A stretch of 64,000 nt of DNA from the NCBI RefSeq assembly GCF_003790525.1, contig NZ_CP033634.1; one strand, given 5' to 3'. Below are positions 10,650 to 55,753 of the stretch, piece after piece; position 1 is the stretch's first letter; each line of letters opens with the position of its first letter. Both the position numbers and the translations under genes were made by a program. This DNA comes from Escherichia coli (GTDB lineage Bacteria > Pseudomonadota > Gammaproteobacteria > Enterobacterales > Enterobacteriaceae). Below the pieces are notes generated by a model. The model searched no databases and was not told the DNA's origin. It saw only the letters and a list, made by a program, of their open reading frames with translations.

Positions 10650-10740
10650 GGTTCAGGCAAGACGCAGGTACCAGAAATGCGAAGACCCCACTTGTTAATC
10701 CATTAACTCGTGAGGTCTGCATGAAGTACTTGAACACTAC
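10650..10740 (-). ncRNA. Putative SrnC-like antisense RNA (approximate)
   Basis: Position inferred from the Hok/Sok paradigm (antisense across the leader start region); promoter not identified. Confidence 0.3.
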
Positions 10741-11670: not shown

Positions 11671-11706
11671 TAGCCAACAATTCAGCTATGCGGGGAGTAT
11701 AGTTAT

Positions 11707-34059: not shown

Positions 34060-34060
34060 C

Positions 34061-34529
34061 ATGAAGCTATATGTAATAGGTAATGGCTTTGATGTTCATC
34101 ATGGCCTTGACACTAGGTATACATCTTTTGGGCTTTATCTCAAAAATAACTACTGGGAAACTTATGAACTATTGCTCGACTATTACGGGTTTGCTGACTT
34201 AGACCCAGATTTTCCAACAACAATGTCAGACCCTTTATGGTCTGAATTTGAAACGAGTATGTCACTGCTTGATAAAGATTCAGTTTTGGAAGCAAACATG
34301 GATGCAATGCCAAACTATTCTTCAGATGACTTTCGAGACAGAGACCGATACACGCTTGAAATTGAGATGGAGCGAATACTTGGCCTTCTAACCACTGAAC
34401 TGTATAAAGCATTCAAAGAGTTCATTTTGGCTGTACAGTTTCCTCAGTTTGATCACAGCCGATCAGTAAACATTGATAGAGACGCTGTTTACCTCACATT
34501 CAACTACACAGATACGCTTTCTCAATACT
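34061..34529 (+). pseudogene. AbiH-like abortive infection gene, truncated at codon 156 by IS2
   Basis: N-terminus MKLYVIGNGFDVHHGLDTRYTSF matches the recalled AbiH N-terminal signature; the frame runs into the IS2 left end at 34530. Confidence 0.6.
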
Positions 34530-34620
34530 TAGACTGGCTCCCTGAATCTCCAGACAACCAGTATCACTTAAATAAGTGATAGTCTTAATACTAGTTTTTA
34601 GACTAGTCATTGGAGAACAG

Positions 34621-34986
34621 ATGATTGATGTCTTAGGGCCGGAGAAACGCAGACGGCGTACCACACAGGAAAAGATCGCAATTGTTCAGCAGAGCTTTGA
34701 ACCGGGGATGACGGTCTCCCTCGTTGCCCGGCAACATGGTGTAGCAGCCAGCCAGTTATTTCTCTGGCGTAAGCAATACCAGGAAGGAAGTCTTACTGCT
34801 GTCGCCGCCGGAGAACAGGTTGTTCCTGCCTCTGAACTTGCTGCCGCCATGAAGCAGATTAAAGAACTCCAGCGCCTGCTCGGCAAGAAAACGATGGAAA
34901 ATGAACTCCTCAAAGAAGCCGTTGAATATGGACGGGCAAAAAAGTGGATAGCGCACGCGCCCTTATTGCCCGGGGATGGGGAGTAA
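34621..34986 (+). CDS. insC: IS2 OrfA (InsC)
   Basis: [56 protein letters not shown]... Confidence 0.92.
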
Positions 34987-35849
34987 GCTTAGTCAGCCGT
35001 TGTCTCCGGGTGTCGCGTGCGCAGTTGCACGTCATTCTCAGACGAACCGATGACTGGATGGATGGCCGCCGCAGTCGTCACACTGATGATACGGATGTGC
35101 TTCTCCGTATACACCATGTTATCGGAGAGCTGCCCACGTATGGTTATCGTCGGGTATGGGCGCTGCTTCGCAGACAGGCAGAACTTGATGGTATGCCTGC
35201 GATCAATGCCAAACGTGTTTACCGGATCATGCGCCAGAATGCGCTGTTGCTTGAGCGAAAACCTGCTGTACCGCCATCGAAACGGGCACATACAGGCAGA
35301 GTGGCCGTGAAAGAAAGCAATCAGCGATGGTGCTCTGACGGGTTCGAGTTCTGCTGTGATAACGGAGAGAGACTGCGTGTCACGTTCGCGCTGGACTGCT
35401 GTGATCGTGAGGCACTGCACTGGGCGGTCACTACCGGCGGCTTCAACAGTGAAACAGTACAGGACGTCATGCCAGGAGCGGTGGAACGCCGCTTCGGCAA
35501 CGATCTTCCGTCGTCTCCAGTGGAGTGGCTGACGGATAATGGTTCATGCTACCGGGCTAATGAAACACGCCAGTTCGCCCGGATGTTGGGACTTGAACCG
35601 AAGAACACGGCGGTGCGGAGTCCGGAGAGTAACGGAATAGCAGAGAGCTTCGTGAAAACGATAAAGCGTGACTACATCAGTATCATGCCCAAACCAGACG
35701 GGTTAACGGCAGCAAAGAACCTTGCAGAGGCGTTCGAGCATTATAACGAATGGCATCCGCATAGTGCGCTGGGTTATCGCTCGCCACGGGAATATCTGCG
35801 GCAGCGGGCTTGTAATGGGTTAAGTGATAACAGATGTCTGGAAATATAG
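34944..35849 (+). CDS. insD: IS2 OrfB (InsD) transposase catalytic part (expressed as OrfAB frameshift fusion)
   Basis: DDE integrase-like ORF overlapping orfA in the -1 frame. Confidence 0.92.
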
Positions 35850-35957
35850 GGGCAAATCCAGTGATATCCAATTCATTCAGTCTGTAAACACAATAGTGGA
35901 CATTCTCACATTGTCAAACGTGTATAGTTAGAGAGTGGAAGTAAAAGTGTATGGGTG

Positions 35958-36056
35958 GTTATTGCTGAGTACGATGACCGGTTCGTTGCGAAGGTCCGGG
36001 CGGAAAACTTTTTCACATGAGGCGTAGAAACTGTTGATATCAGCCAGTGCAAACAT
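35958..36056 (-). pseudogene. impB: impB 5' portion (first 33 codons)
   Basis: MFALADINSFYASCEKVFRPDLRNEPVIVLSNN matches the recalled UmuC N-terminus; the ATG overlaps the impA stop. Confidence 0.75.
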
Positions 36057-36493
36057 CAGCGTAACTCCCGCGTCCTGTGTATCACGTGAGTGACAACACC
36101 AAAAATACAGATGTTTTCCGGATACAGTGTGCGGAACTCCGGGCTGTCTGAAACCGGCTCCAGTGCCGGGCGTGGGCGCAACAGCAGTCGTTTGACGGTG
36201 AACTCACCATCGATCTCAGCGATAACGATGTCCCCGTGTTGTGGTTTTTCGGCCCTGTCCACTACCAGCAGATCACCATTCTGCACGCCAGCCTGGTTCA
36301 TCGATTCACCGCTGGCGCGCAGAAAGAAGGTGGCTGCAGGTCTGCTGATGCAATAGCTGTTCAGATCCAGTTCCTGCTCAGCATAATCAGTGGCAGGCGA
36401 AGGAAAACCGGCCAGGCAACGATCGGCAAACAACGGTCGCACGTAACTGTCATTGCCTGAAGGGTCAGCCGGACGGTGATAAACGGTACTCAT
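36056..36493 (-). CDS. impA: ImpA (UmuD-like, LexA-type S24 peptidase fold)
   Basis: 145-aa product aligns with recalled UmuD (FPSPATDYAEQELDLN...GESMNQAGVQNGDLLVVD...GDIVIAEIDGEFTVKRL). Confidence 0.88.
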   Translation of the reverse strand: MSTVYHRPADPSGNDSYVRPLFADRCLAGFPSPATDYAEQELDLNSYCISRPAATFFLRASGESMNQAGVQNGDLLVVDRAEKPQHGDIVIAEIDGEFTVKRLLLRPRPALEPVSDSPEFRTLYPENICIFGVVTHVIHRTRELR

Positions 36494-36738
36494 GCTGCAG
36501 GCAGCCAGCTGTCGTCCTGCCAGATTTCTTCCAGCAGAGACAGGATACGTTCTTTATCCTTGTCGTTGCGGGCTCCTGTGACAGATACAGACGGGGCGCT
36601 GCCCTGGTCTATACGCAGCCAGATTTCCGGGTAGTGTGGTTTCAGACGTCGTTCGATTTCATTCTGTAGCGCCTGAAGTGTGCCTGATTTGAGGTTTTTT
36701 GTGCTCTGGCGGTCGAAAAGAATTTCAATGCGGATCAT
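36490..36738 (-). CDS. impC: ImpC, small first gene of the impCAB operon
   Basis: 82-aa ORF from ATG 36738 with GGAG upstream; stop overlaps the impA start; sits between the LexA box and impA. Confidence 0.7.
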   Translation of the reverse strand: MIRIEILFDRQSTKNLKSGTLQALQNEIERRLKPHYPEIWLRIDQGSAPSVSVTGARNDKDKERILSLLEEIWQDDSWLPAA

Positions 36739-36761
36739 GTTCTCATCTCCCTTTTCTTTTG

Positions 36762-36777
36762 CTGTATGTATATACAG
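36762..36777 (-). promoter_or_regulatory. LexA (SOS) box CTGTATGTATATACAG upstream of impC
   Basis: Perfect CTGT-N8-ACAG palindrome 24 bp upstream of the impC start. Confidence 0.7.
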
Positions 36778-37378
36778 TATTCTAATAACTGAATCCACAC
36801 ACAGTCAAATGTCATTATTGTGACTAAAAAACGCTCAATTCTCTGAGGGTGTGGCTGTATGCCTGCTGTGGACTGCTGTGTCCAGCTTATCCACAGCATT
36901 TTGCGCACGGTTCTGTGAATAAAATACCTGGTTACCCAGGCCGTGCCGGCACGTTAACCGGGCTGCATCCAATGCAAGTGTGTCGCTGTCGCCGGCATCC
37001 TCACCAGGTCACTCAGCAGTCAGGGAGAAAAATGGCGGATGAAGTATGACGGAGACGGTCGGGCAAGTGCCCGTTTCTTTTCCGACAAAGGATGTCGCCG
37101 TGCTCCTCTTTTTACTGCGCCGGCTGACGCGGCGCGGCATAAACGCTGCCTGTGGTCAGTGTCCCGCGTCCGGCGGGCACGGGACGGGCGCTTTTACCGC
37201 TCCCGGCTGGCACCGGTGACAGTGTACGCCAGCCCGTCGCCCTTTTCTGATGAACGCCCTTCAAGCCGCTTTCGCGAATGAAAGGGACATCTTATTCGGT
37301 CTTTACGCTGGAGAGTTACTTTGGAAGACTGCGTCAACACGATGATAAGCGTACAAAGCCATTGTTAAGGGATCCTCT

Positions 37379-38395
37379 ATGACTGTTGTTACTGTCGGTA
37401 TTGATTTAGCTAAAAATGTGTTCGCTGTGCATGGCGTTAATGCTGCAGGAAAAGCTGTTTTAGTTAAGCCTCTTGTGCGTCGGGCTAAATTGCTTGAATT
37501 GATTGCAACACTTCCAGCATGTCTGATTGGAATTGAAGCATGTACAGGTGCACATTACTGGGCAAGAGAGTTCCAGAAAATGGGGCATACAGTTCGAATT
37601 ATGGCGCCGCAACTGGTTTCTCCATACCGTATGGGTGGCCGTCATGGGAAAAATGATGCTGCAGATGCCGCTGCCATTTGTGAAGCTGTTACCCGTCCTA
37701 ATATGCGGTTTGTTCCCATAAAATCAGTTGAGCAGCAAGGGCAGTTATTTGTACACAGAGCTCATCAGGGATATGTCAGTGAGAGAACAGCATTGATTAA
37801 TCGCATCCGGGGATTGCTCAGTGAGTTAGGTATTGTTCTCCCGCAGGCGTTTAAAGCGTTTTTATCCGGGGTGGCTCAGGTCCTTGAGGATTTGCCCGGT
37901 TACTGTAATCAGGTTATTGGTGATCTTCTTAATGAGCTTTATCACATAGAAGAAAAGATTAAAAACAGTGAAAAACTCATTCAGCAACTTGCCAGAGATA
38001 ACTCAGCAGCACAACTACTAATGCAATTCAGGGGGATAGGCCCGATGACTGCAACAGCAATCGTTGCCAGCATAGGTAATGGTCATGATTTCAAGAACGG
38101 ACGTCAGTTTAGTGCCTGGCTGGGGCTAACACCAAGACAACAAAGTTCCGGGGGGAAAGCACGGTTAGGGAGAATAACTAAAGCCGGCGACAGCTATCTC
38201 AGAACACTTCTTGTTTTGGGGGCGAGATCTGTATTGTTGGGAGCAGCTAAAAATGATGATCCGGTCAGTCGATGGGCCCTGCAGTTAAAAGAAAGGCGAG
38301 GATATGGACGAGCGCTTGTTGCGATAGCAGCAAAAAATGCACGTATGTGCTGGGCAATGTTGCACCTGAGAGATGAATTCAGATTTCCTGCCTAG
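37379..38395 (+). CDS. IS110-family transposase/recombinase
   Basis: 338 aa; N-terminal RuvC-like segment (VGIDLAKNVFAVHG...IGIEACTGAHYW), NDAADAAAICEA motif and C-terminal GIGPMTATAIVASIGNGHDF segment; element ends not determined. Confidence 0.85.
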   Translation: MTVVTVGIDLAKNVFAVHGVNAAGKAVLVKPLVRRAKLLELIATLPACLIGIEACTGAHYWAREFQKMGHTVRIMAPQLVSPYRMGGRHGKNDAADAAAICEAVTRPNMRFVPIKSVEQQGQLFVHRAHQGYVSERTALINRIRGLLSELGIVLPQAFKAFLSGVAQVLEDLPGYCNQVIGDLLNELYHIEEKIKNSEKLIQQLARDNSAAQLLMQFRGIGPMTATAIVASIGNGHDFKNGRQFSAWLGLTPRQQSSGGKARLGRITKAGDSYLRTLLVLGARSVLLGAAKNDDPVSRWALQLKERRGYGRALVAIAAKNARMCWAMLHLRDEFRFPA

Positions 38396-39091
38396 TCTAC
38401 TGATTATTAATGAGTTTATGAAATTGATTTCTTTCCTTGCATGACGACTGCACGATGATGATTTAAAAGGTTTGGACCTGCGCCATGGTTTACTCGAGAT
38501 ATGCAAGAGGCTGCCATGTTTATGTGGATATCTGTTTCGCGGATGGAGTCTATGGCGTGCGTCTTTCGTCAGGGTTCGTTGCTAACAACAGCACGTTAAT
38601 AACCGTTTATAGGCTCGCTGTCCGTAACCTTTTACTCTGACTGTGCAAGTTGTGTGCAGAAATCAATCTCATGATAGATAAAAGAATTATTCCACTGTTG
38701 CACCTGGAGTGTTCGGTGCTCGCTTTGCTGCGCTCCGCCTCAATCCAGTTGCAACAGCGTTTAATTAAAAGCATTAAGGCTTGTGTCATTGCGTACTTGA
38801 GCTATGCAGGAGATTTTTATTGGTTCTCTGTTTCGCGGATGAAGTCTCTGACATGAGCCTTTCTCTCATAAAAATCGTTCTATTTCATATTGATATATTA
38901 ATTTCATCATCATCGTTGACTCTGCAACAGATGTCCTTATAGGCATAGCCTTGCCGTCAAAAAGACGACGGCTGCGGTATTCCACGGTCGGCCTGACCCG
39001 TTACCGGACGCGGTGAACAGCCCACAGGCAGCGGGGAACGGGCACCACAGGGGTGCCCTCCCGGTGCCTTCTGTAAGAGAAGGAGGCTTTT

Positions 39092-39775
39092 ATGTCCCGT
39101 TTTATCCTGGGTGACTGCGTGCGAGTTATGGCCACGTTTCCGGACAATGCTGTCGATTTCATCCTCACCGACCCGCCGTATCTCGTCGGTTTCCGTGACC
39201 GTTCCGGGCGCACCATTGCCGGTGACGTTAACGATGACTGGTTGCAACCTGCCAGCAATGAGATGTACCGCGTACTCAAAAAAGACGCTCTGTTGGTCAG
39301 CTTCTACGGCTGGAACCGTATTGACCGCTTTATGGCGGCCTGGAAACGCGCCGGATTCAGCGTGGCAGGGCACCTCGTGTTCACCAAAAACTACACATCC
39401 AAATCTGCGTATGTCGCGTACCGCCACGAATGCGCCTACATCCTGGCAAAAGGCCGTCCACGTCTGCCACAAAACCCGCTGCCGGACGTGCTGGGCTGGA
39501 AATATTCGGGCAATCGTCATCACCCGACGGAAAAGCCTGTTACCAGCCTGCAACCGCTGATTGAGAGCTTCACACACCCGAACGCAATTGTGCTGGACCC
39601 GTTTGCAGGCAGCGGCTCAACCTGCGTTGCCGCCCTCCAGTCCGGACGCCGGTATATCGGTATCGAGCTGCTTGAGCAGTATCACCGTGCCGGACAGCAA
39701 CGACTGGCTGCCGTTCAACGGGCCATGCAGCAGGGGGCCGCGAATGATGACTGGTTTATGCCGGAGGCTGCGTAA
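39092..39775 (+). CDS. Orphan DNA methyltransferase (N6-adenine/N4-cytosine class, DPPY motif)
   Basis: FILTDPPYLVGF motif IV and C-terminal FAGSGST AdoMet-binding motif; AGGAGG before the ATG; no adjacent endonuclease gene. Confidence 0.8.
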   Translation: MSRFILGDCVRVMATFPDNAVDFILTDPPYLVGFRDRSGRTIAGDVNDDWLQPASNEMYRVLKKDALLVSFYGWNRIDRFMAAWKRAGFSVAGHLVFTKNYTSKSAYVAYRHECAYILAKGRPRLPQNPLPDVLGWKYSGNRHHPTEKPVTSLQPLIESFTHPNAIVLDPFAGSGSTCVAALQSGRRYIGIELLEQYHRAGQQRLAAVQRAMQQGAANDDWFMPEAA

Positions 39776-39997
39776 ATGAACTATGCCGGACACGAAAAAC
39801 TTCGCGCCGAAGTGGCGGAGGTGGCCAACACCATGTGTGACCTTCGGGCCAGGCTGAACGATATGGAGCATCGCTGTCGTTTTGATTCCGATGTGCTTGT
39901 TGAACGCCTGACACGCCAGACGCTGTATCGCGCCAATCGCCTGTTTATGGAGGCGTATACCGAAATTCTTGAACTGGATGCGTGCTTCAAAGATTAA
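39776..39997 (+). CDS. Hypothetical leading-region protein
   Basis: 73-aa ORF starting 1 nt after the methyltransferase stop. Confidence 0.5.
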   Translation: MNYAGHEKLRAEVAEVANTMCDLRARLNDMEHRCRFDSDVLVERLTRQTLYRANRLFMEAYTEILELDACFKD

Positions 39998-40009
39998 GGG
40001 GGAGACGAA

Positions 40010-40444
40010 ATGTACGGAACATGCGAAACACTCTGCCGGGAGCTGGCAGCGCAGTATCCGGGAGACACGCCGCTGATGCTGGTTGTCTGGTCCCCGGAAG
40101 AGATTCAGGCACTGGCTGACGGTATGGAAATTTCTCTGACCGATCATGAAATCAGGACCGTCCTGTCGCGCCTGGAGGACATCCCGGAAGACCAGCGGAG
40201 TGAATCCGGTATTTCTTCTGCCGCTGCGATGGAGATTATCAGCAACGTGAGCGAAAACCGCCAGGTGACCGTCCCTGCTGAACTGCTGGCGTCCCTGATT
40301 CAGACCGCCGAACAGGCACTGTGGAAACGTGAATGGGCCGCCCGTGATAACGGCCTTGCCGTCCCGGAATGTGTTACCCGCCGTCAGGCAGTGATTAATC
40401 AGGCCCGCACCCTGCTGAAAAACAACACACACGAAAACAACTGA
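40010..40444 (+). CDS. Hypothetical leading-region protein (paralogue of the ORF at 41921-42343)
   Basis: 144 aa; shares the ...R.VTVPA..L...... block with the 41921 ORF. Confidence 0.55.
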   Translation: MYGTCETLCRELAAQYPGDTPLMLVVWSPEEIQALADGMEISLTDHEIRTVLSRLEDIPEDQRSESGISSAAAMEIISNVSENRQVTVPAELLASLIQTAEQALWKREWAARDNGLAVPECVTRRQAVINQARTLLKNNTHENN

Positions 40445-40558
40445 TGTTATCGCCGCCTGCCCTCTGCCATTCAGAGACTGACCGGAACCGGGGCGGAACT
40501 GGTACTGTCCGGCAGTCAGTGGCAGTCGCTGCCGGTACTTCCGGCAGACGGAACGCAG

Positions 40559-41032
40559 GTGTCTTTCCCGTATGCCGGAGAATGGCTGACCGAAGACGAA
40601 ATCAGGGCTGTTCTTGATGCGGTGCACGATGCGGTACGAAGCATCTGTTACCAGGTGGCAGAAGATACGCGGCGTATCCGGGCGGCGCTGACCACCACCG
40701 GTCAGACGTTGCTGACCCGCCAGACGCGCCGCTTTCGCCTGGTCGTGAAGGAAAGCGATCATCCCTGCTGGCTCGATGAAGATGACGAAAACCTGCCCGT
40801 AGTGCTCGATGTCATCGTGAACCGGGGCGCACGTTTTTCGGCAGTGGAAATGTACCTGGTCAGCGATTGTATTGAGCATATCCTGTCCAGTGGGCTGGCC
40901 TGCGATGTGCTGCGTATACCGGATGAACCGCCCCGCCGCTGGTTTGACCGTGGTGTTCTGCGGGAGGTGGTCCGGGAAGCCCGGACCGAAATCCGCAGCA
41001 TGGCGGATGCCCTGGCAAAAATCCGTAAATGA
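40559..41032 (+). CDS. Hypothetical leading-region protein (GTG start)
   Basis: 157-aa ORF in the same orientation as its neighbours. Confidence 0.5.
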
Positions 41033-41448
41033 TGACACTGGCGGGGTAAATCCCCGCCTTTTTCCTGCCGGTCCCCGGACAGAGCACAAAGGAAGTCGCC
41101 GCCGGCTCCGCTTTACCCGGCCATGCGGGGCATGGCCTTGTGGATTTTCAGTTATGTGGCCTCAGCGTCGTGTGCGGGCTGTGCCGTGCCTCCATCGTAG
41201 CCGGGCTTCTGCGGGCGGGTTGCAAGGTAAGGTGAACCGCTGCGGTCACCCGGTCCCTCCTTCCCGTCTGCCGTGATTTTCCGGTCGTTCACCCGCTCAG
41301 ATTTCGCGGTCTCACCCTCCAACTCCCGCCAGCCGTGTGCGTCAGGCTGCGGCTTCCCTTGCGCCCTTGCAACCCTGCAGGCCCGGCAAAGATGGAGGCA
41401 CGGCACCGCCCGGTGTCGCGGAATATGTGAACAACGGAGGAAAACATC

Positions 41449-41874
41449 ATGCAATATGCGAAACCTGTCACTCTGAATGTTGAAGAGTGCGACCGTCTGT
41501 TTTTTCTGCCTTACCTGTTTGGCCAGGATTTTCTGTATGCCGAGGCATCTGTGTACGCGCTGGCGAAAAAAATGATGCCGGAATATGACGGCGGATTCTG
41601 GCACTTCATCCGCCTGCCGGACGGTGGCGGTTACATGATGCCGGATGGCGACCGTTTTCATCTGGTCAACGGTGAAAACTGGTTTGACCGTACGGTCAGC
41701 GCCGATGCCGCAGGCATCATTGTGACTTCCCTTGTGATTAACCGTCAGTTGTGGCTGTACCACGACAGCGGTGATGCAGGACTGACTCACCTGTACAGGA
41801 TGCGCGATGCGCAGTTGTGGAGCCACATCGAATTTCACCCCGAATGCAATGCGATTTACGCGGCACTGGACTGA
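41449..41874 (+). CDS. klcA: KlcA/ArdB-family antirestriction protein
   Basis: 141-aa product; size, leading-region position and recalled KlcA/ArdB family resemblance. Confidence 0.7.
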
Positions 41875-41920
41875 TTAACGGACGGGGCGGCAATGCCGCC
41901 CCTGTAAAGGAGACGAGAAC

Positions 41921-42343
41921 ATGTACTGTACTGTTAAAGAAATTATCCGCGAAGTGCTGGATACAGACGTGCCGGACAGTGAATGCGTTTTTGCCGTGGT
42001 GCTGACCCGTGGGGATGTGCGCCACATAGCTCAGGACTGGAGTCTGGCAGACGATGAGCTGGAAACCGTCATGCAGCGGCTGGACGATGCCTTTGAGCAT
42101 GGTGCGGATGTCAGCGTTGTTCACGACGTTGTTCGTGAACTGATGGAAGAAAAGCGCGCCAGCCGTCATGTGACAGTCCCGGCGATGATGCTGGAAAAAG
42201 TGATGGCGCTGGCAGGCAGTGAAATGAAGCGCCTGTATGCCGTCGGAAGTGAGAACGGGGGCGACGGTGACGCATTCGTCAGGGAGGAACGCGAAGCAAT
42301 GGACGTTGTGTTACAGGCGCTGGACGGGGAGACGATGTCATGA
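41921..42343 (+). CDS. Hypothetical leading-region protein
   Basis: 140-aa ORF with an AGGAGA-type ribosome-binding site. Confidence 0.55.
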   Translation: MYCTVKEIIREVLDTDVPDSECVFAVVLTRGDVRHIAQDWSLADDELETVMQRLDDAFEHGADVSVVHDVVRELMEEKRASRHVTVPAMMLEKVMALAGSEMKRLYAVGSENGGDGDAFVREEREAMDVVLQALDGETMS

Positions 42344-42531
42344 ATATCAGCACAGAAACCCGCGAAATTCTGCGTAATTACAGGGCCGTGATTAATGCGC
42401 GGCGTCGTGAAATGGGGCAGAAACCGCTCACCACCGCGCAGATTGTTGATGAAATCTGCGATTTTGTGGCGAATCAGCAGGCGGTTTTCCTAGGCGGTCA
42501 CTACATCTTACAGGGCAGCAGAAACAGGTGA
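42340..42531 (+). CDS. Hypothetical small protein
   Basis: 63-aa ORF overlapping the upstream stop. Confidence 0.4.
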   Translation: MNISTETREILRNYRAVINARRREMGQKPLTTAQIVDEICDFVANQQAVFLGGHYILQGSRNR

Positions 42532-42720
42532 TACAGGGGCAGGCGGTGGAGGCCGCCTGTCAGCCCGCGCGAAAACCCCTGGCAGGCTGACGCCTGCCGG
42601 AAGGGAAGCGGGCCACGCTGGCGCGTCGCCCGTTACCCTTCCCGTCTGTGATGTGTCTGACTCAGGAGTGTTTCTTTCTTATGTTATGGAACTGTTCCTG
42701 ATGTTGTTGTTCCTTTATCT

Positions 42721-43335
42721 GCTGCTCTGATTCTGACTACTGCAGTGTTGTTCTGTCTGCCGGGCGCACCTTCGGCTCCCGGCTGCCTGGCGGCATCCGG
42801 TCGTCAGGCCCGACTCCGACAGGCAGCTGCTGGCGCACCCGCCAGTCTCCGCCGAACCCGCTGGCGCGGTTTCGGGCTGTCGCTACGGTCCGATGCGTGA
42901 AAACCCCGGGCTTGCAGCGACCGTTCCGGTCGCGCCGCCTCTGTCGCGCCGTGGCCTGCGCTCCAGGCATCCCGGCAAAAAGACGCCGGGATGTAAGGCG
43001 CAACGCCGTTTCGCAAACCGCGCTTCACGTCGTTGCTGCGGGTCCCTGCTCATTGCCTGCCGGGTGCCACACACCCGTATGAGTCCCTGTCGCCGGGGGC
43101 ATAGACAGCCACAACCTGCCGCACTGACTGTCCAGGGTAAATGAACAGCCCACAAAATTTTTTACCCAGAACCCGGTAAAAAATTTTGCGTTCTGCCCAG
43201 GACAGGTGCGTCAGGCCGTGGCAGTGATGCCCCTTGCGGCGAAGGTTCTCAAACGGGTGAAGTTCATACCACAGGGAATACAGCAGCAGGTTCCCGCGAA
43301 ACGTCAAAACCGCGGCTCCCGAAACTCAACGGGTG
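42721..43335 (+). repeat. Frpo/ssi-like leading-region repeat, copy 1 (putative single-stranded-DNA promoter element)
   Basis: About 600 bp of GC-rich non-coding sequence recurring near-identically at 46052-46675 and, with an internal deletion, at 51454-52010; each copy precedes a plus-strand gene cluster. Confidence 0.6.
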
Positions 43336-43570
43336 ATGTTCTTTAAAAATCAGGATTTATTTCAGGCTCCGGCAATACGCATTTATGTGTTCTGTCAGTC
43401 ATCCGGCTGGCAGGTAATGAGAACGCAGGAACAGAAGGAGGAAAACACCGGAGAACGTCAGACGCAGATATGAAAAAAGCAGGTCAGGGACCTGCTTAAT
43501 CCACGCCGTAAGAATTGCGCAACCAATTTTGACGGCATTGTTAACCAATTTGTCATAAGGAGTTTCATTT

Positions 43571-43801
43571 ATGACGGTAAGTATTGTTTCACCTTCCGCA
43601 GCGGCTGTAAAGCCCCGCCGTCATCCCCGTTTCAGACGCGAAGACATCCCCGCGCCGGAAATTGACCCCGTGCTGAAAGCCTTCGGGCGACACATAGCCC
43701 GGAGTTTTCACCGGGGGCGTGGTGTACACATCCCCGCCATGAAAAACACGGCCTTCGGGCAGGTGCTCCGCACACTCGAACTGAAACGCGCTTTTAACTG
43801 A
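43571..43801 (+). CDS. Hypothetical small basic protein
   Basis: 76-aa ORF downstream of Frpo copy 1. Confidence 0.4.
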   Translation: MTVSIVSPSAAAVKPRRHPRFRREDIPAPEIDPVLKAFGRHIARSFHRGRGVHIPAMKNTAFGQVLRTLELKRAFN

Positions 43802-43852
43802 TGAGGTGAGCCGCCCCGCGAGGGGCGGCAACAGATGGAAGGAGAACATTTT

Positions 43853-45214
43853 ATGACATTAGCAGCAATCACCATGACCGCCCCGGAAGCCGCCAACCCT
43901 GTGCAGATGTACCGCGCGACCTACTCACCGGATGACAACAAACTGCGCCTGTATGCCGCGTCACGTCTTGACCCGGAGACGTATAAAAAAGTGCATGATG
44001 CCGGTTTTCGCTGGGCACCCAAACAGGCGCTGTTTGTCGCGCCAGCCTGGACACCGGGCCGGGAAGACGTGCTCCTCTCACTTGCCGGAGAGATTGAGGA
44101 TGAAGACAGCACGCTCGCTGAACGTCAGGAAGCACGGGCGGAGCGGTTTACCGGATACAGCGGAAAGCGGGCCAGTGAATCCGCACAGGCACTTGATGAA
44201 GTGGAAAGACTGGCCGCGATGATCCCGCCCGGTCAGCCCATTCTTGTGGGGCATCACAGCGAACGCCGCGCCCGTCGTGATGCGCAGCGTATTGAAAACG
44301 GCATGAAACGTGCCGTGATGCTCTTTGAGCGTGCGGAATACTGGGAGGAGCGGGCGCGGTCGGCACTGCTTCACGCGAAGTATAAAGAACGCCCGGACGT
44401 TCGCTGGCGTCGTATCAAAAAAATCGAAGCGGATTTGCGCAAGGCTGAAAAGACCATCGCGCAGTCGCAGAAATATCTGACGATGTGGCGGGCTGAATCG
44501 CTGGATCTGAATATGGCAAAACTCATCAGCAGTCATGACCATATCAGCGCCTGTTTCCCGCTGGACAGGTATCCGCGCCCGGCAGAAAAAAGCCAGTATG
44601 AAGGAAGTCGATCGTTATGGTCGGCCCTGGATGATGACATCATCACCACGGAGCAGGCCCGCGAAATTGCGATCCGCTGTCATGAACGGCAGATTCAGCA
44701 TCAACAACGCTGGGTTAACCACTATCATAACCGCCTGATCTATGAGCGTGCCATGCTGGACGAAAGCGGCGGCGTGGTTACCCGGACACAGGATTTTGAG
44801 CCGGGCGGACAGGTTTTCAGCCGGGGCGAGTGGCTGACCATCATCCGCGTGAACAAAAGCAACGGGGCGGTGAGTTCAGTCACAACGCCGAATTACAGTT
44901 TTCTCGGGTACAGCGGCACGATGAAAGTGACACCCGATCGCATCACGGACTACAAAGCACCATCGGCAGAAGAGGCTGCCGTCGCCAGTCAGGCCGCGAA
45001 GCGTCCGCCGGTAGTCAACTATCCGGGGGAAGGTTTCCGGGAAATGACAAAGGCGCAGTGGGCCGCCCTGCCCCGGGACTGTAAGGCCGTGCGCAGTGTG
45101 GCAGAGACAGAAGACCACGGGGCATACCGCTACCGCCGCACAATGGACAATAATTTCCGCCTGGTGAATGTGTATATCACTGACATGAAAATCACGGAAA
45201 TCCCACAGAAATAA
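43853..45214 (+). CDS. Large leading-region protein (recalled as DUF3560-like)
   Basis: 453 aa from the ATG at 43853 (GGAAGGAGA 7 nt upstream); the listed ORF starts 6 codons earlier. Confidence 0.65.
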   Translation: MTLAAITMTAPEAANPVQMYRATYSPDDNKLRLYAASRLDPETYKKVHDAGFRWAPKQALFVAPAWTPGREDVLLSLAGEIEDEDSTLAERQEARAERFTGYSGKRASESAQALDEVERLAAMIPPGQPILVGHHSERRARRDAQRIENGMKRAVMLFERAEYWEERARSALLHAKYKERPDVRWRRIKKIEADLRKAEKTIAQSQKYLTMWRAESLDLNMAKLISSHDHISACFPLDRYPRPAEKSQYEGSRSLWSALDDDIITTEQAREIAIRCHERQIQHQQRWVNHYHNRLIYERAMLDESGGVVTRTQDFEPGGQVFSRGEWLTIIRVNKSNGAVSSVTTPNYSFLGYSGTMKVTPDRITDYKAPSAEEAAVASQAAKRPPVVNYPGEGFREMTKAQWAALPRDCKAVRSVAETEDHGAYRYRRTMDNNFRLVNVYITDMKITEIPQK

Positions 45215-45260
45215 GGTATATCCCCCCGGGAAATCCCCGGGGGATGACGGAGATAATGAC

Positions 45261-45824
45261 ATGCACAGTCAGTTAAGAGAACGTATCCGGCTGATGCGCG
45301 CAAGGCTGGATAACGCCGCGCCGGTTGCTGAAATCCGGGCTGAATCTCAGCTTTTTGTGACTCCTGCCCCGGTCTGTGATCGCCTGGTGACGCTGGCGGA
45401 AATCAGCAACCGTGATCACATTCTGGAACCCTCTGCCGGCACCGGGGCCATACTGCTGGCGATTCGGGATACCGCGCCGGAGGCCATGTGTGATGCGGTG
45501 GAGATTAACAGCGGGCTGGTCCGGTATCTGCGGGAAAATTTTAACGGTGTCAGGGTACAGTGTGGCGACTTCATGGAATGGCAGCCGGTGCAGTATTACA
45601 GCCGGATCATTATGAATCCGCCGTTCAGTCACGGGCAGGATATCCGGCATATCCTGCGGGCTTTTTCCCTGTTGCGTCCGGGGGGCGTTCTGGTTGCCGT
45701 CTGTCTCAACGGGCCGCGCCAGCAGGAGAAGCTGTTACCGTTTTCTGACGTCCGCGAGGAGCTGCCGCGCGGCACGTTTGCTTATACCGATGTCCCGACG
45801 ATGATTATTCGTTTGCGTGCCTGA
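45261..45824 (+). CDS. Second orphan SAM-dependent methyltransferase (NPPF motif)
   Basis: ILEPSAGTGAIL (AdoMet-binding motif I) and IIMNPPFSHG (motif IV); 187 aa; no endonuclease partner. Confidence 0.7.
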   Translation: MHSQLRERIRLMRARLDNAAPVAEIRAESQLFVTPAPVCDRLVTLAEISNRDHILEPSAGTGAILLAIRDTAPEAMCDAVEINSGLVRYLRENFNGVRVQCGDFMEWQPVQYYSRIIMNPPFSHGQDIRHILRAFSLLRPGGVLVAVCLNGPRQQEKLLPFSDVREELPRGTFAYTDVPTMIIRLRA

Positions 45825-46006
45825 TGACACAGGGCTGGCGGGAGGATAAATGCCCGTCTGTCCGCGCCGGGAAAAGACCGCGCGCCGGTGGCGCTGAAAG
45901 GGGCCGCGCTCACGCGCCGCCCCTTTCATTACGCGGACGTTCTGATGGGGGCTTCTGTCTTTTCAGACCTGTCATTTGTCTGTTACTGATGATGTTGTTG
46001 TTCCTG

Positions 46007-46040
46007 CTACTGCTACTGCTACTGCTACTGCTACTGCTCT
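46007..46040 (+). repeat. Hexanucleotide tandem repeat (CTACTG)n immediately upstream of Frpo copy 2
   Basis: ctgctactgctactgctactgctactgctactgctc read directly; absent at the equivalent position of copies 1 and 3. Confidence 0.85.
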
Positions 46041-46051
46041 TCTTTTTCCTG

Positions 46052-46675
46052 CTGCTCTGATTCTGACTACTGCAGTGTTGTTCTGTCTGCCGGGCGCACC
46101 TTCGGCTCCCGGCTGCCTGGCGGCATCCGGTCGTCAGGCCCGACTCCGACAGGCAGCTGCTGGCGCACCTGCCAGTCTCCGCCGAACCCGCTGGCGCGGT
46201 TTCGGGCTGCCGCTACGGTCCGATGCGTGAAAACCCGGCTTGCAGCGACCGTTCCGGTCGCGCCGCCCCTGTCGCGCCGTGACCTGCGCTCCAGGCATCC
46301 CGGCAAAAAGACGCCGGGATGTAAGGCGCAACGCCGTTTCGCAAACCGCGCTTCACGTCGTTGCGGCGGGTCCCTGCCCGTTGTTGTGTCCGGTGCCATT
46401 CACCTGTTTAAGCCCCTGTCGCCGGGGGCTGATACAGCCACAACCTGCCGCACTGACTGTCCAGGGTAAATGAACAGCCCACAAAATTTTTTACCCAAAA
46501 CCCGGTAAAAAATTTTGCGTTCTGCCCAGGACAGGTGCGTCAGGCCGTGGCAGTGATGCCCCATGCGGCGAAGGTTCTCAAACAGGTGATGGTGAATACC
46601 GGAGGGAACAAAGAGCAGGTCCCCGCAAAACGTCAAAACCGCGGCTCCCGAAACTCAACAGATGATGGGGGCTGA
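46052..46675 (+). repeat. Frpo/ssi-like leading-region repeat, copy 2
   Basis: Near-identical to copy 1; lies directly upstream of ssb. Confidence 0.6.
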
Positions 46676-46700
46676 AAACATCAACAGAAGGAGACACATC

Positions 46701-47228
46701 ATGGCAGTTCGTGGCATTAACAAGGTCATTCTTGTCGGTCGTCTGGGAAAAGATCCGGAAGTCCGTTACATCCCAAACGGGGGCGCAGTGGCAAACCTGC
46801 AGGTGGCCACGTCAGAAAGCTGGCGCGACAAACAGACGGGGGAGATACGGGAGCAGACAGAATGGCATCGCGTGGTGCTGTTCGGCAAGCTCGCGGAAGT
46901 GGCTGGTGAGTATCTGCGCAAGGGCGCGCAGGTCTACATCGAAGGTCAGCTTCGCACCCGTAGCTGGGAGGATAACGGTATCACCCGTTACGTCACCGAA
47001 ATTCTTGTTAAGACCACGGGCACCATGCAGATGCTGGGACGTGCCGCAGGTACTCAGACTCAGCCGGAAGAGGCGCAACAGTTCAGCGGTCAGCCTCAGC
47101 CGGAATCACAGCCGGAACCGAAAAAAGGAGGCGCGAAAACGAAAGGCCGTGGACGTAAGGCCGCGCAGCCGGAGCCTCAGCAGCCGTCTGAACCCGCGTA
47201 TGACTTCGATGACGACATTCCGTTCTAA
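46701..47228 (+). CDS. ssb: Plasmid single-stranded DNA-binding protein
   Basis: [48 protein letters not shown]... OB-fold SSB with acidic DFDDDIPF tail; AAGGAG before the ATG. Confidence 0.92.
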
Positions 47229-47580: not shown

Positions 47581-49539
47581 ATGTCAGTTACAGAGTCTAA
47601 GACAAAAACGGAGCGTAAATCCAGCCGTAAACCTGCAAAAACGCAGGAAACTGTCCTGTCTGCCCTGCTGGCGCAGACGGAGGAAGTGAGCGTGCCGCTG
47701 GCCTCGCTGATTAAATCACCGCTGAATGTGCGCACGGTGCCGTATTCTGCGGAGTCCGTCAGCGAACTGGCGGAGTCCATTAAGGGCGTCGGACTGCTGC
47801 AGAATCTGGTCGTGCATACCCTGCCAGGTGACCGTTACGGTGTCGCCGCAGGTGGTCGCCGACTGGCAGCACTCAACATGCTGGCAGAGCGTGGAATCAT
47901 TCCGGCTGACTGGCCTGTCCGCGTGAAAATTATTCCGCAGGAACTGGCGACGGCTGCATCGATGACCGAGAACGGTCATCGTCGGGATATGCACCCTGCC
48001 GAACAGATTGCCGGATTCCGCGCAATGGCGCAGGAAGGCAAAACACCTGCACAAATCGGTGATTTGCTGGGCTATTCACCCCGCCACGTTCAGCGAATGC
48101 TGAAACTGGCAGACCTTGCGCCTGTCATTCTCGATGCGCTGGCAGAGGACCGCATCACCACAGAGCACTGTCAGGCGCTGGCGCTGGAGAACGACACCGC
48201 GCGTCAGGTGCAGGTGTTTGAAGCCGCCTGTCAGTCAGGATGGGGCGGTAAACCGGAAGTGCAGACCATTCGTCGTCTGGTGACCGAAAGTGAAGTGGCG
48301 GTGGCGGGGAACAGTAAATTCCGCTTCGTGGGGGCTGATGCCTTCTCGCCAGATGAACTGCGCACCGATTTGTTCAGCGACGACGAGGGTGGCTATGTGG
48401 ACTGCGTGGCGCTCGATGCCGCCCTGCTGGAAAAACTCCAGGCTGTTGCTGAACACCTTCGGGAAGCCGAAGGCTGGGAATGGTGCGCCGGACGTATGGA
48501 GCCTGTCGGTTTCTGCCGTGAGGATGCCGGAACATACCGCAGTCTGCCGGAGCCGGAAGCGGTGCTGACGGAGGCGGAAGAAGAACGCCTGAACGAACTG
48601 ATGGCACGTTACGACGCGCTGGAAAATCAGTGTGAGGAATCCGACCTGCTGGAAGCAGAAATGAAGCTGATTGACTGCATGGCGAAGGTCAGGGCGTGGA
48701 CGCCGGAGATGCGTGCCGGAAGTGGCTTGGTGGTATCCTGGCGTTATGGAAACGTATGTGTCCAGCGTGGTGTGCAGTTGCGCAGTGAGGATGACGTGGC
48801 TGACGACGCTGGCCGCACGGAACAGGTGCAGGAGAAAGCCTCCGTGGAGGGAATCAGTCTGCCGCTGCTGACGAAAATGTCTTCCGAACGCACGCTGGCA
48901 GTCCAGGCGGCACTCATGCAGCAACCGGACAAATCCCTGGCACTGCTGGCATGGACGCTCTGCCTGAATGTGTTTGGCAGCGGAGCGTACAGTAAACCAG
49001 CACAAATCAGCCTGGAATGTGAACATTATTCGCTGACCAGCGATGCGCCATCGGGGAAGGAAGGTGCCGCATTCATGGCGCTGATGGCAGAAAAAGCCCG
49101 TCTTGCTGCCCTGTTGCCGGAGGGATGGGCACGGGACATGACGACGTTCCTGTCACTCAGTCAGGAGGTGCTGTTATCCCTGCTCAGTTTCTGCACCGCA
49201 TGCAGCCTTAACGGTGTCCAGACCCGTGAGTGTGGTCACACGTCACGCAGTCCGCTTGACTCGCTGGAAACCGCTATCGGATTCCACATGCGCGACTGGT
49301 GGCAGCCGACAAAAGCAAACTTCTTCGGACACCTGAAAAAGCCGCAGATTATCGCAGCCCTGAATGATGCCGGACTGTCCGGTGCCGCACGGGACGCGGA
49401 GAAGATGAAGAAAGGCGATGCGGCTGAACATGCAGAGTTCCACATGAAAGACAACCGCTGGGTGCCTGGCTGGATGTGTGCACCACGTCCACAGACGGAT
49501 GCCACTGAACGCACCGCTAACCTGGCTGATGCCGCCTGA
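47581..49539 (+). CDS. ParB-like nuclease-domain protein of the leading region
   Basis: 652 aa; N-terminal ParB/Srx-like motif (GLLQNLVVHTLPGDRYGVAAGGRRLAA). Confidence 0.8.
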   Translation: MSVTESKTKTERKSSRKPAKTQETVLSALLAQTEEVSVPLASLIKSPLNVRTVPYSAESVSELAESIKGVGLLQNLVVHTLPGDRYGVAAGGRRLAALNMLAERGIIPADWPVRVKIIPQELATAASMTENGHRRDMHPAEQIAGFRAMAQEGKTPAQIGDLLGYSPRHVQRMLKLADLAPVILDALAEDRITTEHCQALALENDTARQVQVFEAACQSGWGGKPEVQTIRRLVTESEVAVAGNSKFRFVGADAFSPDELRTDLFSDDEGGYVDCVALDAALLEKLQAVAEHLREAEGWEWCAGRMEPVGFCREDAGTYRSLPEPEAVLTEAEEERLNELMARYDALENQCEESDLLEAEMKLIDCMAKVRAWTPEMRAGSGLVVSWRYGNVCVQRGVQLRSEDDVADDAGRTEQVQEKASVEGISLPLLTKMSSERTLAVQAALMQQPDKSLALLAWTLCLNVFGSGAYSKPAQISLECEHYSLTSDAPSGKEGAAFMALMAEKARLAALLPEGWARDMTTFLSLSQEVLLSLLSFCTACSLNGVQTRECGHTSRSPLDSLETAIGFHMRDWWQPTKANFFGHLKKPQIIAALNDAGLSGAARDAEKMKKGDAAEHAEFHMKDNRWVPGWMCAPRPQTDATERTANLADAA

Positions 49540-50744: not shown

Positions 50745-50924
50745 TGCGGCAACAATCACACGGATTTCCCGTGAACGGTCTGAATGAGCGGATTATTTTC
50801 AGGGAAAGTGAGTGTGGTCAGCGTGCAGGTATATGGGCTATGATGTGCCCGGCGCTTGAGGCTTTCTGCCTCATGACGTGAAGGTGGTTTGTTGCCGTGT
50901 TGTGTGGCAGAAAGAAGATAGCCC

Positions 50925-51000
50925 CGTAGTAAGTTAATTTTCATTAACCACCACGAGGCATCCCTATGTCTAGTCCACATCAGGATAGCCTCTTACCGCG
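50925..51000 (-). ncRNA. sok: Putative Sok antisense RNA (approximate)
   Basis: Position inferred from the hok/sok paradigm (antisense across the mok start region). Confidence 0.35.
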
Positions 51001-51178
51001 CTTTGCGCAAGGAGAAGAAGGCCATGAAACTACCACGAAGTTCCCTTGTCTGGTGTGTGTTGATCGTGTGTCTCACACTGTTGATATTCACTTATCTGAC
51101 ACGAAAATCGCTGTGCGAGATTCGTTACAGAGACGGACACAGGGAGGTGGCGGCTTTCATGGCTTACGAATCCGGTAA
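50966..51178 (+). CDS. mok: Mok-like overlapping reading frame of the hok/sok locus
   Basis: 70-codon frame overlapping hok in the +2 register, as described for R1 hok/sok. Confidence 0.55.
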
Positions 51179-51182: not shown

Positions 51183-51453
51183 CAACCTGGAGGCGGGCGC
51201 AGGCCCGCCTTTTCAGGACTGATGCTGGTCTGACTACTGAAGCGCCTTTATAAAGGGGCTGCTGGTTCGCCGGTAGCCCCTTTCTCCTTGCTGATGTTGT
51301 ACGGGCATGAACAACCTGACTTCAGGAAGGTCGTTTCCCTTCAGGAACGGGGATGAACGCGCGCCTGCGGCGCCCGTTCTTTTCCCCCGCCTTCTCTGGT
51401 TACGGCCTGTCAGAAATCACATCACCTTCCCTGTGATTATTCTCTTTTTCTTC

Positions 51454-54489: not shown

Positions 54490-54873
54490 ATGGCGAAAGT
54501 GCAGGCTTATGTCAGTGACGAAATTGTCTATAAAATAAATAAAATTGTGGAAAGAAGACGTGCAGAAGGAGCTAAAAGTACAGATGTAAGTTTCTCAAGC
54601 ATATCCACTATGCTTCTCGAATTAGGGCTTCGTGTATATGAGGCTCAGATGGAGCGTAAAGAGTCAGCGTTCAATCAGGCTGAGTTTAATAAGGTGCTTC
54701 TTGAATGTGCGGTAAAAACACAGTCAACAGTTGCTAAGATTTTAGGTATTGAGTCACTAAGCCCTCATGTTTCCGGGAATCCAAAGTTTGAATATGCGAA
54801 TATGGTCGAAGATATCAGGGAGAAGGTGTCATCTGAGATGGAGAGGTTCTTTCCAGAAAATGATGAGGATTAA
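54490..54873 (+). CDS. traM: TraM
   Basis: MAKVQAYVSDEIVYKINKIVERRRAEGAKSTDVSFSSISTMLLELGLRVYEAQ..., 127 aa. Confidence 0.9.
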   Translation: MAKVQAYVSDEIVYKINKIVERRRAEGAKSTDVSFSSISTMLLELGLRVYEAQMERKESAFNQAEFNKVLLECAVKTQSTVAKILGIESLSPHVSGNPKFEYANMVEDIREKVSSEMERFFPENDED

Positions 54874-54961
54874 AAAAGAATTAAAAGTTGATTTGCTTCA
54901 AATAACAGGATTTTGATCTGGTTCAATTTGATGACAATTAACCGCATAAAGGTTATATTAA

Positions 54962-55040
54962 TTACGTGGTTAATGCCACGTTAAAAATTGAAACTGAAAA
55001 TCGCCGATGCAGGGAGTTCAGACCTCCCTGCATCGACTGT
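54962..55040 (-). ncRNA. finP: Putative FinP antisense RNA against the traJ leader (approximate)
   Basis: Two hairpins in the traJ 5' UTR (CGTGG-TTAATG-CCACG at about 54965-54980; GATGCAGGGAG-TTCAGAC-CTCCCTGCATC at about 55005-55035); finO is present in the window. Confidence 0.45.
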
Positions 55041-55066
55041 CCATAGAATCCTTAACGGAGGTTCCT

Positions 55067-55753
55067 ATGTGTGCGCTGGATCGTAGAGAAAGGCCACTTA
55101 ACAGTCAATCTGTAAATAAATACATCCTTAACGTTCAGAATATCTACAGAAATTCTCCCGTTCCGGTTTGTGTCCGTAACAAAAACCGGAAAATCCTTTA
55201 TGCCAATGGGGCTTTTATTGAACTCTTTTCCAGAGAAGATAAACCCTTATCCGGAGAGAGTTATATACGTCTGCAGGTTGAAATTTTTCTTTCATCACTT
55301 GAACTGGAATGCCAGGCTCTTGGACATGGCTCTGCATTTTGTCGTCGTTTTAATTTTCATGGCGAAATCTATCAGATAAGGATGGAGAATGTTTCTTTTT
55401 ATAATGACGAATCTGTTGTTTTATGGCAAATTAATCCGTTTCCTGATTATCCATTTTTTGCGTTAAATCAGAGTGGAAGTAATACAAATACTTCTGATAA
55501 ATTAACGATATGGAATGATCTTTCTCCAGGGACATTGGTTGTTTTCTCTTTTTATATGCTGGGTGTTGGTCACGCAACAATTGCCAGAGAGTTGGGTATT
55601 ACAGACAGAGCATCTGAGGATCGAATTAAACCAGTTAAACGGAAAATAAAAGAATTTTTTGAACACTTTGATTTATTCAGAGTGTCATGTATCTATAAAG
55701 GAGAAATAGATTCGCTATTAAGTATAATTCGTGAATTTTATAGTATTAAGTAA
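55067..55753 (+). CDS. traJ: TraJ transfer activator
   Basis: 228 aa from the ATG at 55067 (GGAGG 6 nt upstream); position between traM and traY; TraJ is poorly conserved among F-like plasmids. Confidence 0.7.

Follow-up and report, generated by a model that had tools for sequence, protein, structure and literature searches.

What do two solitary methyltransferase genes do in the leading region of a conjugative plasmid, and how would the shorter of the two, which encodes a catalytic core without a target-recognition domain, be brought to its substrate? The 64,000-nucleotide stretch of Escherichia coli DNA analysed here (NCBI RefSeq assembly GCF_003790525.1, contig NZ_CP033634.1; called the window below) is an IncF-type conjugative plasmid, and it carries two such genes, which we call MTase 1 and MTase 2 (for methyltransferase). 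We consider it likely that MTase 1 is an M.EcoGIX-type enzyme and that MTase 2, together with the DUF3560 protein encoded just before it, makes up a second enzyme that probably acts on incoming plasmid DNA; in this explanation we infer that the enzymes are active, that MTase 2 and the DUF3560 protein associate physically, that MTase 2 acts on DNA and that the genes of this plasmid are expressed early. The genes on which the argument turns are as follows (ORF, open reading frame; aa, amino acids; SAM, S-adenosylmethionine):

39092–39775, + strand: MTase 1, beta-class N6/N4 DNA methyltransferase by homology, 227 aa, M.EcoGIX orthologue
43571–43801, + strand: 76-aa ORF at the head of the MTase 2 operon, annotated at the same position in pGZM7d and pU302L
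43835–45214, + strand: DUF3560 protein (YdbA-type), 459 aa; annotated start 43853; Pfam DUF3560 at aa 95–212, E 1e-36
45261–45824, + strand: MTase 2, class I SAM-dependent amino-methyltransferase core, 187 aa, with SQLFVTP, EPSAGTG and NPPF and without a target-recognition domain

The original prediction, made from the nucleotide sequence, had described two ORFs with SAM-binding motifs and the catalytic motifs DPPY and NPPF; both ORFs are present on the + strand at the coordinates it gave, and the motifs and family matches given below bear this out.

MTase 1 and M.EcoGIX

The MTase 1 protein has DPPY at aa 27–30 (nt 39170–39181) and DPFAGSGST at aa 169–177 (FAGSGS at aa 171–176), so that motif IV precedes motif I, which is the beta-class order, and a strong ribosome-binding site (AAGGAGG) lies 6 nt 5′ of the gene. 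It matches Pfam N6_N4_Mtase (PF01555) with E 8e-38, NCBIfam PRK13699 “DNA methyltransferase” with 489 bits (cut-off 244) and PADLOC MTase_II with E 8e-143. Alignment with M.EcoGIX of pESBL-EA11 is full length and gap-free, with 210 of 227 residues identical (93%). pESBL-EA11 has a single “DNA methylase”, at 54782..55465, and it can be identified as M.EcoGIX because these are the coordinates that Supplementary Table 7 of Fomenkov et al. 2020 (PMC7736820) gives for that enzyme. MTase 1 thus shares with M.EcoGIX (pESBL, IncI1) and M.BceJIII the DPPY plus FxGxG beta-class layout, and with M.EcoGIX also its downstream genes and its leading-region orientation; the order methylase, 73-aa ORF, DUF1380 gene, klcA is common to the window, pESBL, F and pU302L. 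The gene that follows the methylase is:

39776–39997, + strand: conserved 73-aa ORF (222 nt), directly 3′ of the M.EcoGIX-type gene also in F, pESBL and pU302L; no NCBIfam family match

The known properties of M.EcoGIX supply a function for MTase 1. M.EcoGIX is a promiscuous enzyme that makes N6-methyladenine at SAY in single-stranded DNA only, RNA is not a substrate, no methylation is detectable in donor cells, and the enzyme guards pESBL from restriction in the recipient with an effect that depends on the orientation of oriT (PMC7736820). A “class 3” single-strand promoter drives strong induction of its gene in transconjugants within 15 min, as also happens with the F homologue (PMC12672017). 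By homology, MTase 1 would methylate adenines of single-stranded DNA with almost no sequence specificity (SAY), and its target would be the strand that has just entered the recipient by transfer, ahead of complementary-strand synthesis; the resulting duplex would be hemimethylated at many sites and would escape restriction, and the enzyme would be silent in established cells. As an M.EcoGIX orthologue by all these comparisons, with its presumed activity, MTase 1 needs no new explanation.

One consequence concerns the assay. The original prediction had proposed comparing the methylomes of plasmid-bearing and cured strains and had held that the lack of any plasmid-dependent methylation motif would refute a role for these enzymes. 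The IncF orthologue on pEC958 leaves no detectable signature in a steady-state methylome (PMC4659465). Because M.EcoGIX and this IncF orthologue are silent in donors, yet M.EcoGIX protects during transfer (PMC7736820, PMC4659465), such a result would be a false negative and not a refutation, and steady-state methylome comparison is the wrong assay for enzymes of the MTase 1 type.

At the nucleotide level the MTase 1 allele of the window is uncommon, as only 14 of 4527 E. coli records carry it at 95% identity or more and most lie at 80–95%; for contrast, the MTase 2 gene is present at 95% identity or more in about 3000 records. This difference suggests a mosaic ancestry of the leading region.

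MTase 2 as a bare catalytic core

MTase 2 has SQLFVTP at aa 29–35 (motif X), LEPSAGTG at aa 55–62 (motif I) and NPPF at aa 119–122 (motif IV, nt 45615–45626), and all three are conserved in 23 homologues of 51–88% identity, motifs I and IV being invariant or nearly so. The order X, I, IV with (N/D)PP(Y/F/W) is that of the gamma class. These features mark MTase 2, as far as sequence comparison goes, as an amino-methyltransferase that acts on an exocyclic or amide nitrogen. Family matches are weaker than those of MTase 1: in Pfam only MTS (E 1e-7), Methyltransf_25 (E 2e-5) and RrnaAD (E 3e-4) are found, N6_Mtase (E 0.12) and Eco57I are not significant, and PADLOC MTase_II is matched with only E 7e-11.

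The AlphaFold2 (AF2) model of MTase 2 (predicted local distance difference test score, pLDDT, 87.8) is a seven-stranded Rossmann sheet with its helices, preceded by an N-terminal helix at aa 3–17 (of lower confidence) and a disordered linker at aa 19–29. The suspicion in the original prediction that this 187-aa protein has no target-recognition domain was well placed: the AF2 model contains the Rossmann core and no extra domain, and NCBIfam and PADLOC searches found no S-subunit gene nearby. This sets MTase 2 apart from the gamma-class N6-adenine DNA methyltransferases (M.TaqI, M.BseCI, CamA and the type I HsdM), which have a target-recognition domain of their own or an S subunit.

A profile search of PDB sequences finds MJ0882, M.TaqI (aligned over its residues 23–109), KsgA, Erm and HemK at similar E-values. 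Fold searching was tried as a way to discriminate between substrates and was set aside, as it does not separate DNA, RNA and protein methyltransferases. The strongest profile matches come from mobile elements. PHROG families of proteins 1200–3900 aa long, some of them named DNA methyltransferase, match with E 1e-25 to 1e-32, mad2 of the MADS defence system (PADLOC) matches with E 1e-20, and matching phage proteins include a DarB-like antirestriction protein. The likeness to DarB-like proteins, PHROG 9133, 11358 and 15406 and mad2 (E 1e-20 to 1e-32) covers the whole catalytic core; the difference is that in those proteins the domain is embedded in multi-module polypeptides of 500–3900 aa, whereas MTase 2 is a free protein of 187 aa beside a DUF3560 gene. 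These matches tilt the likely substrate of MTase 2 toward DNA, with annotations that are mostly inferred themselves. To our knowledge, the activity of the methyltransferase domains in these large proteins is largely untested. A 262-aa phage protein that matches MTase 2 is labelled “DNA polymerase processivity factor”, an annotation that we do not trust.

The DUF3560 protein as a proposed partner of MTase 2

A HMMER scan of 1.84 billion representative proteins returned 4831 relatives of MTase 2 at E <1e-10. Among the best 150 of these 4831, most of the proteins of 400–730 aa (43–50% identity) carry the MTase 2 domain at their C-terminus, and the N-terminal ~430 residues of the fused relatives are homologous to the entire 43835–45214 product (phmmer E 1e-70 to 1e-130). 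For a finer comparison we used profiles of four modules of the DUF3560 protein, namely an N-terminal alpha/beta domain, a helical region that contains Pfam DUF3560, and two C-terminal beta modules. At least one of these modules lies N-terminal to the methyltransferase domain in 75 of 94 representative relatives of at least 225 aa; the N-terminal alpha/beta domain and the helical region are both present in 45 of the 94, and Pfam DUF3560 itself is detected in 48 of 93 relatives. The fusion evidence is restricted to relatives at 40–55% identity. Two 582-aa “fusions” that are 98% identical (P0125 and P0126), and chimeras among the close matches, are singletons from short assemblies and were treated as frameshift or read-through artefacts.

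Foldseek against the AlphaFold database (AFDB) also finds fused proteins, in Pandoraea, Pelobacter propionicus and an uncultured deltaproteobacterium, and fused genes occur in mobile contexts, one locus with RadC, resolvase and integrase genes and another with phage genes. A free methyltransferase 46% identical to MTase 2 (locus L009) has a DUF3560-type gene directly before it, with overlapping stop and start codons. Family sizes agree with such pairing as well, as the methyltransferase family of MTase 2 type and the DUF3560 family in the table of Samuel et al. 2024 are near-equal in size (1957 and 1913 members) and adjacent in median position.

Because the DUF3560 protein and the methyltransferase are one polypeptide in most distant relatives, we infer that in the window they would form a two-subunit enzyme. 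MTase 2 would be the bare catalytic subunit of a second amino-methyltransferase, the DUF3560 protein would stand in for a recognition domain by binding or targeting the substrate, and the most likely substrate would be incoming plasmid DNA. The N-terminal helix of MTase 2 could have a part in this. It is strongly conserved in the free form (M1, L5, R8, I9 and M12 are invariant in 23 homologues) and largely absent from fused forms, whose alignment to MTase 2 usually starts at residue 23–27; because the helix is conserved in the free form and the fused alignments begin after it, it may be a docking element.

The AF2 model of the DUF3560 protein is well formed (pLDDT 86.8); no informative relative was found in the PDB by structure or by sequence, and in a literature search DUF3560 was absent from titles and abstracts. 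A single metagenomic protein of 1018 aa (P0367) has a beta-clamp-like domain (DNA_pol3_beta_3, E 2e-6) followed by DUF3560 and then the methyltransferase, and this one example hints at a replication-linked role. It is possible, although we hold this view only tentatively, that the plasmid pair is a split version of a fused protein widespread in plasmids, integrative elements and phages, and that its non-catalytic part replaces a recognition domain and tethers the core to single-stranded DNA or to the replication machinery.

Two details of these genes are recorded here. From the end of DUF3560 to the start codon of MTase 2 there are 46 nt, which hold a GC-rich palindrome, ATCCCCCCGGGAAATCCCCGGGGGAT, at 45220–45245; having no T-run, it is not a typical terminator, and a part in coupling translation of both genes, or in tuning it, is conceivable. 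Among the larger relatives, P0290 (1453 aa, from a phage-like locus, L007 6135–10496) has a long low-complexity C-terminal extension with repeated “PPHTSTGP” motifs.

Leading-region position and orphan status

The landmarks and neighbouring genes that place both methyltransferases on the plasmid are:

1646–6589: traI, landmark
11598–11689: CopA, landmark
54964–55073: traJ 5′ untranslated region (UTR) with FinP, landmark
46.7–50.7 kb, + strand: ssb, ParB-like gene, psiB and psiA, leading-region context
46662–47228, + strand: plasmid ssb (NCBIfam PRK13732, 366 bits)
47581–49539, + strand: ParB-like leading-region protein (NCBIfam ParB models; PDB Spo0J/ParB, E 1e-17)
41449–41874, + strand: klcA, ArdB/KlcA-type anti-restriction protein (phmmer: KlcA 2KMG, E 2e-18; ArdB 2WJ9, E 8e-8)
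40010–40444 and 41921–42343: two DUF1380 genes

From the traJ 5′ UTR/FinP, traI and ssb–psiA landmarks we place oriT near 54.5 kb and take 39–54 kb to be the leading region. Genes in this interval are oriented toward oriT, and both methyltransferase ORFs are co-oriented with ssb, psiB and psiA on the + strand, in keeping with the leading-region location originally proposed. Both enzymes are orphans, because the eight neighbouring proteins include no match to a restriction enzyme, to a PADLOC defence model or to an NCBIfam nuclease family, and the claim that no cognate endonuclease accompanies them holds to that extent. A 7.8-kb segment around both genes matched more than 5000 plasmid records, and among the matches listed the best is E. 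coli pGZM7d (IncFIA, MOBF) at 99.7% identity.

Two other names in this interval were considered and discarded. The 300-aa product of ORF 52358–53260 was examined as a third leading-region methyltransferase of the DUF4942/YdiA type that is present in pESBL, and it is not of that type. DUF1380 proteins are frequently named “adenine-specific methyltransferase” in UniProt; the two in the window have no NCBIfam or PADLOC match, alternative names include DUF1380/PF07128, and we take the methyltransferase name on DUF1380 families to be a propagated mislabel.

Predicted single-strand promoter elements and expression of the MTase 2 operon

A repeat of ~600 nt occurs three times in the leading region, at 42691–43353, 46021–46682 and about 51400–52016. 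The elements relevant to expression are:

42691–43353, − strand: Frpo/ssi-type (class 1) element, copy A, with a predicted hairpin on the transferred (−) strand at 43000–43340
43474–43576, − strand: AS-pc01 antisense RNA (Rfam RF02875, 86.7 bits; gathering score 79), overlapping the start of the 76-aa ORF
46021–46682, − strand: Frpo/ssi-type element, copy B, upstream of ssb at the end of the MTase 2 operon
41089–41441, + strand: intergenic element upstream of klcA, candidate class 2 single-strand promoter, 87.5% identical to L003:13958–14310 directly upstream of pESBL ardA

The three repeat copies are 84–94% identical to two sites in F, 58170–58642 (directly upstream of ssb) and 63558–64011, which from their position are taken to be the Frpo sites. 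Class 1 of single-strand promoters includes the Frpo sites as well as ssi1–3 of ColIb-P9; for the F and pESBL copies transcription has been shown to start on single-stranded DNA, and the Frpo hairpin is reported to be inactive once double-stranded (PMC12672017). Copy A is 93% identical to F 58174–58609, just upstream of F ssb, and its DNA folds into a ~320-nt hairpin at −101.7 kcal/mol (z −10.3); copy B, 94% identical to F 58170–58642, folds at −102.4 kcal/mol (z −10.2). Copy A lies 5′ of the 76-aa ORF, the DUF3560 gene and MTase 2, and copy B lies 3′ of them and 5′ of ssb.

Copy A therefore resembles the F/ColIb-P9 Frpo/ssi promoters (Masai and Arai 1997; class 1 of PMC12672017) in its 93% identity to the F element and its ~320-nt transferred-strand hairpin, and it differs from the F and pESBL class 1 promoters in that it precedes an operon not found in either plasmid. 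The 76-aa ORF (no match in NCBIfam, PHROG or PADLOC), the DUF3560 gene and MTase 2 would be co-transcribed from this Frpo-type single-strand promoter hairpin of their own, and promoter homology of this kind suggests zygotic induction of the operon. AS-pc01 has a promoter-like site at 43611–43583 and a terminator-like site at 43497–43477 on the − strand, and it could silence the MTase 2 operon after establishment. Upstream of klcA, the 41089–41441 element agrees with the reported likeness between the hairpins 5′ of klcA and ardA (PMC12672017).

The third repeat copy (51380–52016) is 98% identical to copy B over 300 nt and lies downstream of hok/sok and upstream of ORF 52358–53260. Between MTase 2 and copy B, at 46004–46073, there is a tandem repeat of the hexamer CTGCTA (5.8 exact copies), which gives rise to a spurious poly-leucine ORF at 45824–46060.

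Deletion and insertion upstream of MTase 1

The MTase 1 gene differs from its M.EcoGIX counterpart in what lies upstream, as this plasmid has lost the DUF1281 gene together with a portion of the upstream hairpin region, and an insertion sequence (IS) element lies 150 bp 5′ of the gene:

37277–38941, + strand: IS110-family insertion, transposase at 37379–38395, 150 bp 5′ of MTase 1

In BLASTN comparisons with pESBL, F and pU302L, homology runs up to window position 37012 (L003:3352 in the pESBL locus) and resumes at 37032 (L003:4388), so that relative to these three plasmids ~1 kb including the DUF1281 gene has been lost at the 37012/37032 junction; it is broken again from 37277 to 38941 by the IS110-family element. 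pGZM7d carries the same insertion, where the transposase is annotated as ISShdy1-family. With the 7.8-kb query only 3 plasmid records match at 99% or more among the matches listed, and the others start at 38942, just past the IS.

In pESBL the transferred strand of the intergenic segment 5′ of the M.EcoGIX operon folds at −80 kcal/mol (z −5), beyond the −75 kcal/mol threshold used to pick promoters in PMC12672017, with its main hairpin at about L003:3276–3441. The window keeps half of this hairpin (up to L003:3352), the remnant folds at −41 kcal/mol, and the IS separates it from MTase 1. With half of the hairpin deleted and the IS between the remnant and the gene, damage to the single-strand promoter that would serve MTase 1 is probable here, to judge by the pESBL hairpin.

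Alternative explanations

Several observations weigh against the explanation given above. By sequence and fold MTase 2 is about equally near M.TaqI, HsdM and M.BseCI on one side and METTL5, KsgA, Erm and HemK on the other, and the activity proposed for it and for the DUF3560 protein rests on sequence comparison. F and pESBL, the two plasmids with early-conjugation transcriptomes, are without the MTase 2 operon, and early expression of MTase 1 may be reduced here by the upstream damage. The early anti-restriction role that the original prediction gave to both enzymes, alongside klcA and the ParB-like protein, thus fares unevenly: klcA and the ParB-like gene are there (the former by its match to the KlcA structure 2KMG, the latter to Spo0J/ParB structures), and for MTase 1 the role is backed by experiments on the 93%-identical orthologue (PMC7736820, PMC12672017), but MTase 2 as a DNA methyltransferase is unproven.

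If MTase 2 were instead to methylate host or plasmid RNA, at adenine N6 or guanine N2 in rRNA or tRNA, for example to tune translation during establishment, one would look for kinship with Erm or KsgA; its matches to the curated NCBIfam models of these enzymes are far below the cut-offs (Erm, 33 bits with a cut-off of 212; KsgA, 30 bits with a cut-off of 171), and the protein ends right after the core without their C-terminal RNA-binding domain. Far stronger matches go to mad2 and to mobile-element domains annotated as DNA methyltransferases, one relative is fused to the beta-clamp-like domain, and M.EcoGIX does not use RNA, though it belongs to a different family. We regard the RNA reading as unlikely. 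A HemK/PrmC-type protein methyltransferase, which would modify glutamine N5 of a host factor or of the DUF3560 partner, has the NPPF motif and the matches to PrmC, HemK and L3 glutamine methyltransferase in its favor, together with two fused relatives named “protein-L-isoaspartate O-methyltransferase” by JGI. Those names are automatic, the PrmC/HemK score is 29 bits against a cut-off of 199, the N-terminal domain of HemK is missing from MTase 2, and the plasmid, integrative-element and phage contexts and the clamp fusion point to nucleic acid, not protein, as the substrate; of a protein substrate we are highly doubtful.

The remaining alternative leaves the chemistry as it is and moves its purpose, with both enzymes serving plasmid housekeeping in established cells (copy number, replication or gene regulation) and not restriction evasion. 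PolI-dependent replicons do fall in copy number with M.EcoGIX, which also associates with PolI (PMC7736820), Dimitriu et al. consider regulatory roles possible for plasmid methylases and report one dam knockout without effect, and the MTase 2 operon has an antisense RNA across its start. Set against this, M.EcoGIX is silent in donors and its protection depends on oriT orientation, both genes of the window are on the strand that can be transcribed from the transferred strand, and MTase 2 lies behind a Frpo hairpin that is reportedly inactive once double-stranded. A purely housekeeping role seems to us improbable, and we prefer the explanation in which MTase 1 is an M.EcoGIX-type enzyme and MTase 2 with the DUF3560 protein a second enzyme for the incoming strand.

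Relation to previous work and distribution

“Orphan” DNA methyltransferases are among the most prominent leading-region functions in Samuel et al. 2024, all on the strand that can be transcribed from the transferred DNA, and protection from restriction is suggested there for these families. The families that correspond to the genes of the window are:

Family 8 (K07319): 3753 members, median position 21 ORFs from oriT; fits MTase 1
Family 26 (K07317/K00561): 1957 members, position 11; fits MTase 2
Family 28 (DUF3560): 1913 members, position 12; Foldseek hits named “Methyltransferase domain”

These families were matched to the window genes by annotation, family size, strand and position, and not by sequence comparison. 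Families 7 and 14 (“adenine-specific methyltransferase”) were considered for MTase 2 and rejected, as they are DUF1380 proteins. The picture of orphan methyltransferases and anti-restriction is already known, and both methyltransferase families are catalogued in that study; as far as its available part goes, it does not present the DUF3560 protein and its methyltransferase neighbour as parts of a single enzyme. The present analysis adds the fused-versus-split relationship between these two proteins and, for this plasmid, the probable damage around the promoter of MTase 1.

Of 5426 complete E. coli genomes, 62% carry MTase 1 and 51% carry MTase 2, with about 99% of copies on plasmids, which puts both among the commonest E. 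coli plasmid genes; the leading region in which they lie decides the survival of resistance plasmids that reach a new host. With the fusion evidence, a short methylase without a recognition domain becomes part of a concrete, testable two-protein hypothesis, and the two-gene module of MTase 2 and DUF3560 is the one lead worth following. If the hypothesis is true, the split enzyme would be a second route, mechanistically distinct from M.EcoGIX, to unspecific methylation of the entering strand.

Other features of the window

Upstream of the leading region, 31435–36800 holds genes for a PIN-domain protein and an AbiH family protein (from the pGZM7d annotation), then an IS2 copy, and after it umuD and a DinI-like gene on the − strand. 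Two matches to sok antitoxin RNA, at 10632–10788 near the replicon and at 50850–51026 in the leading region after psiA, indicate two hok/sok-type loci.

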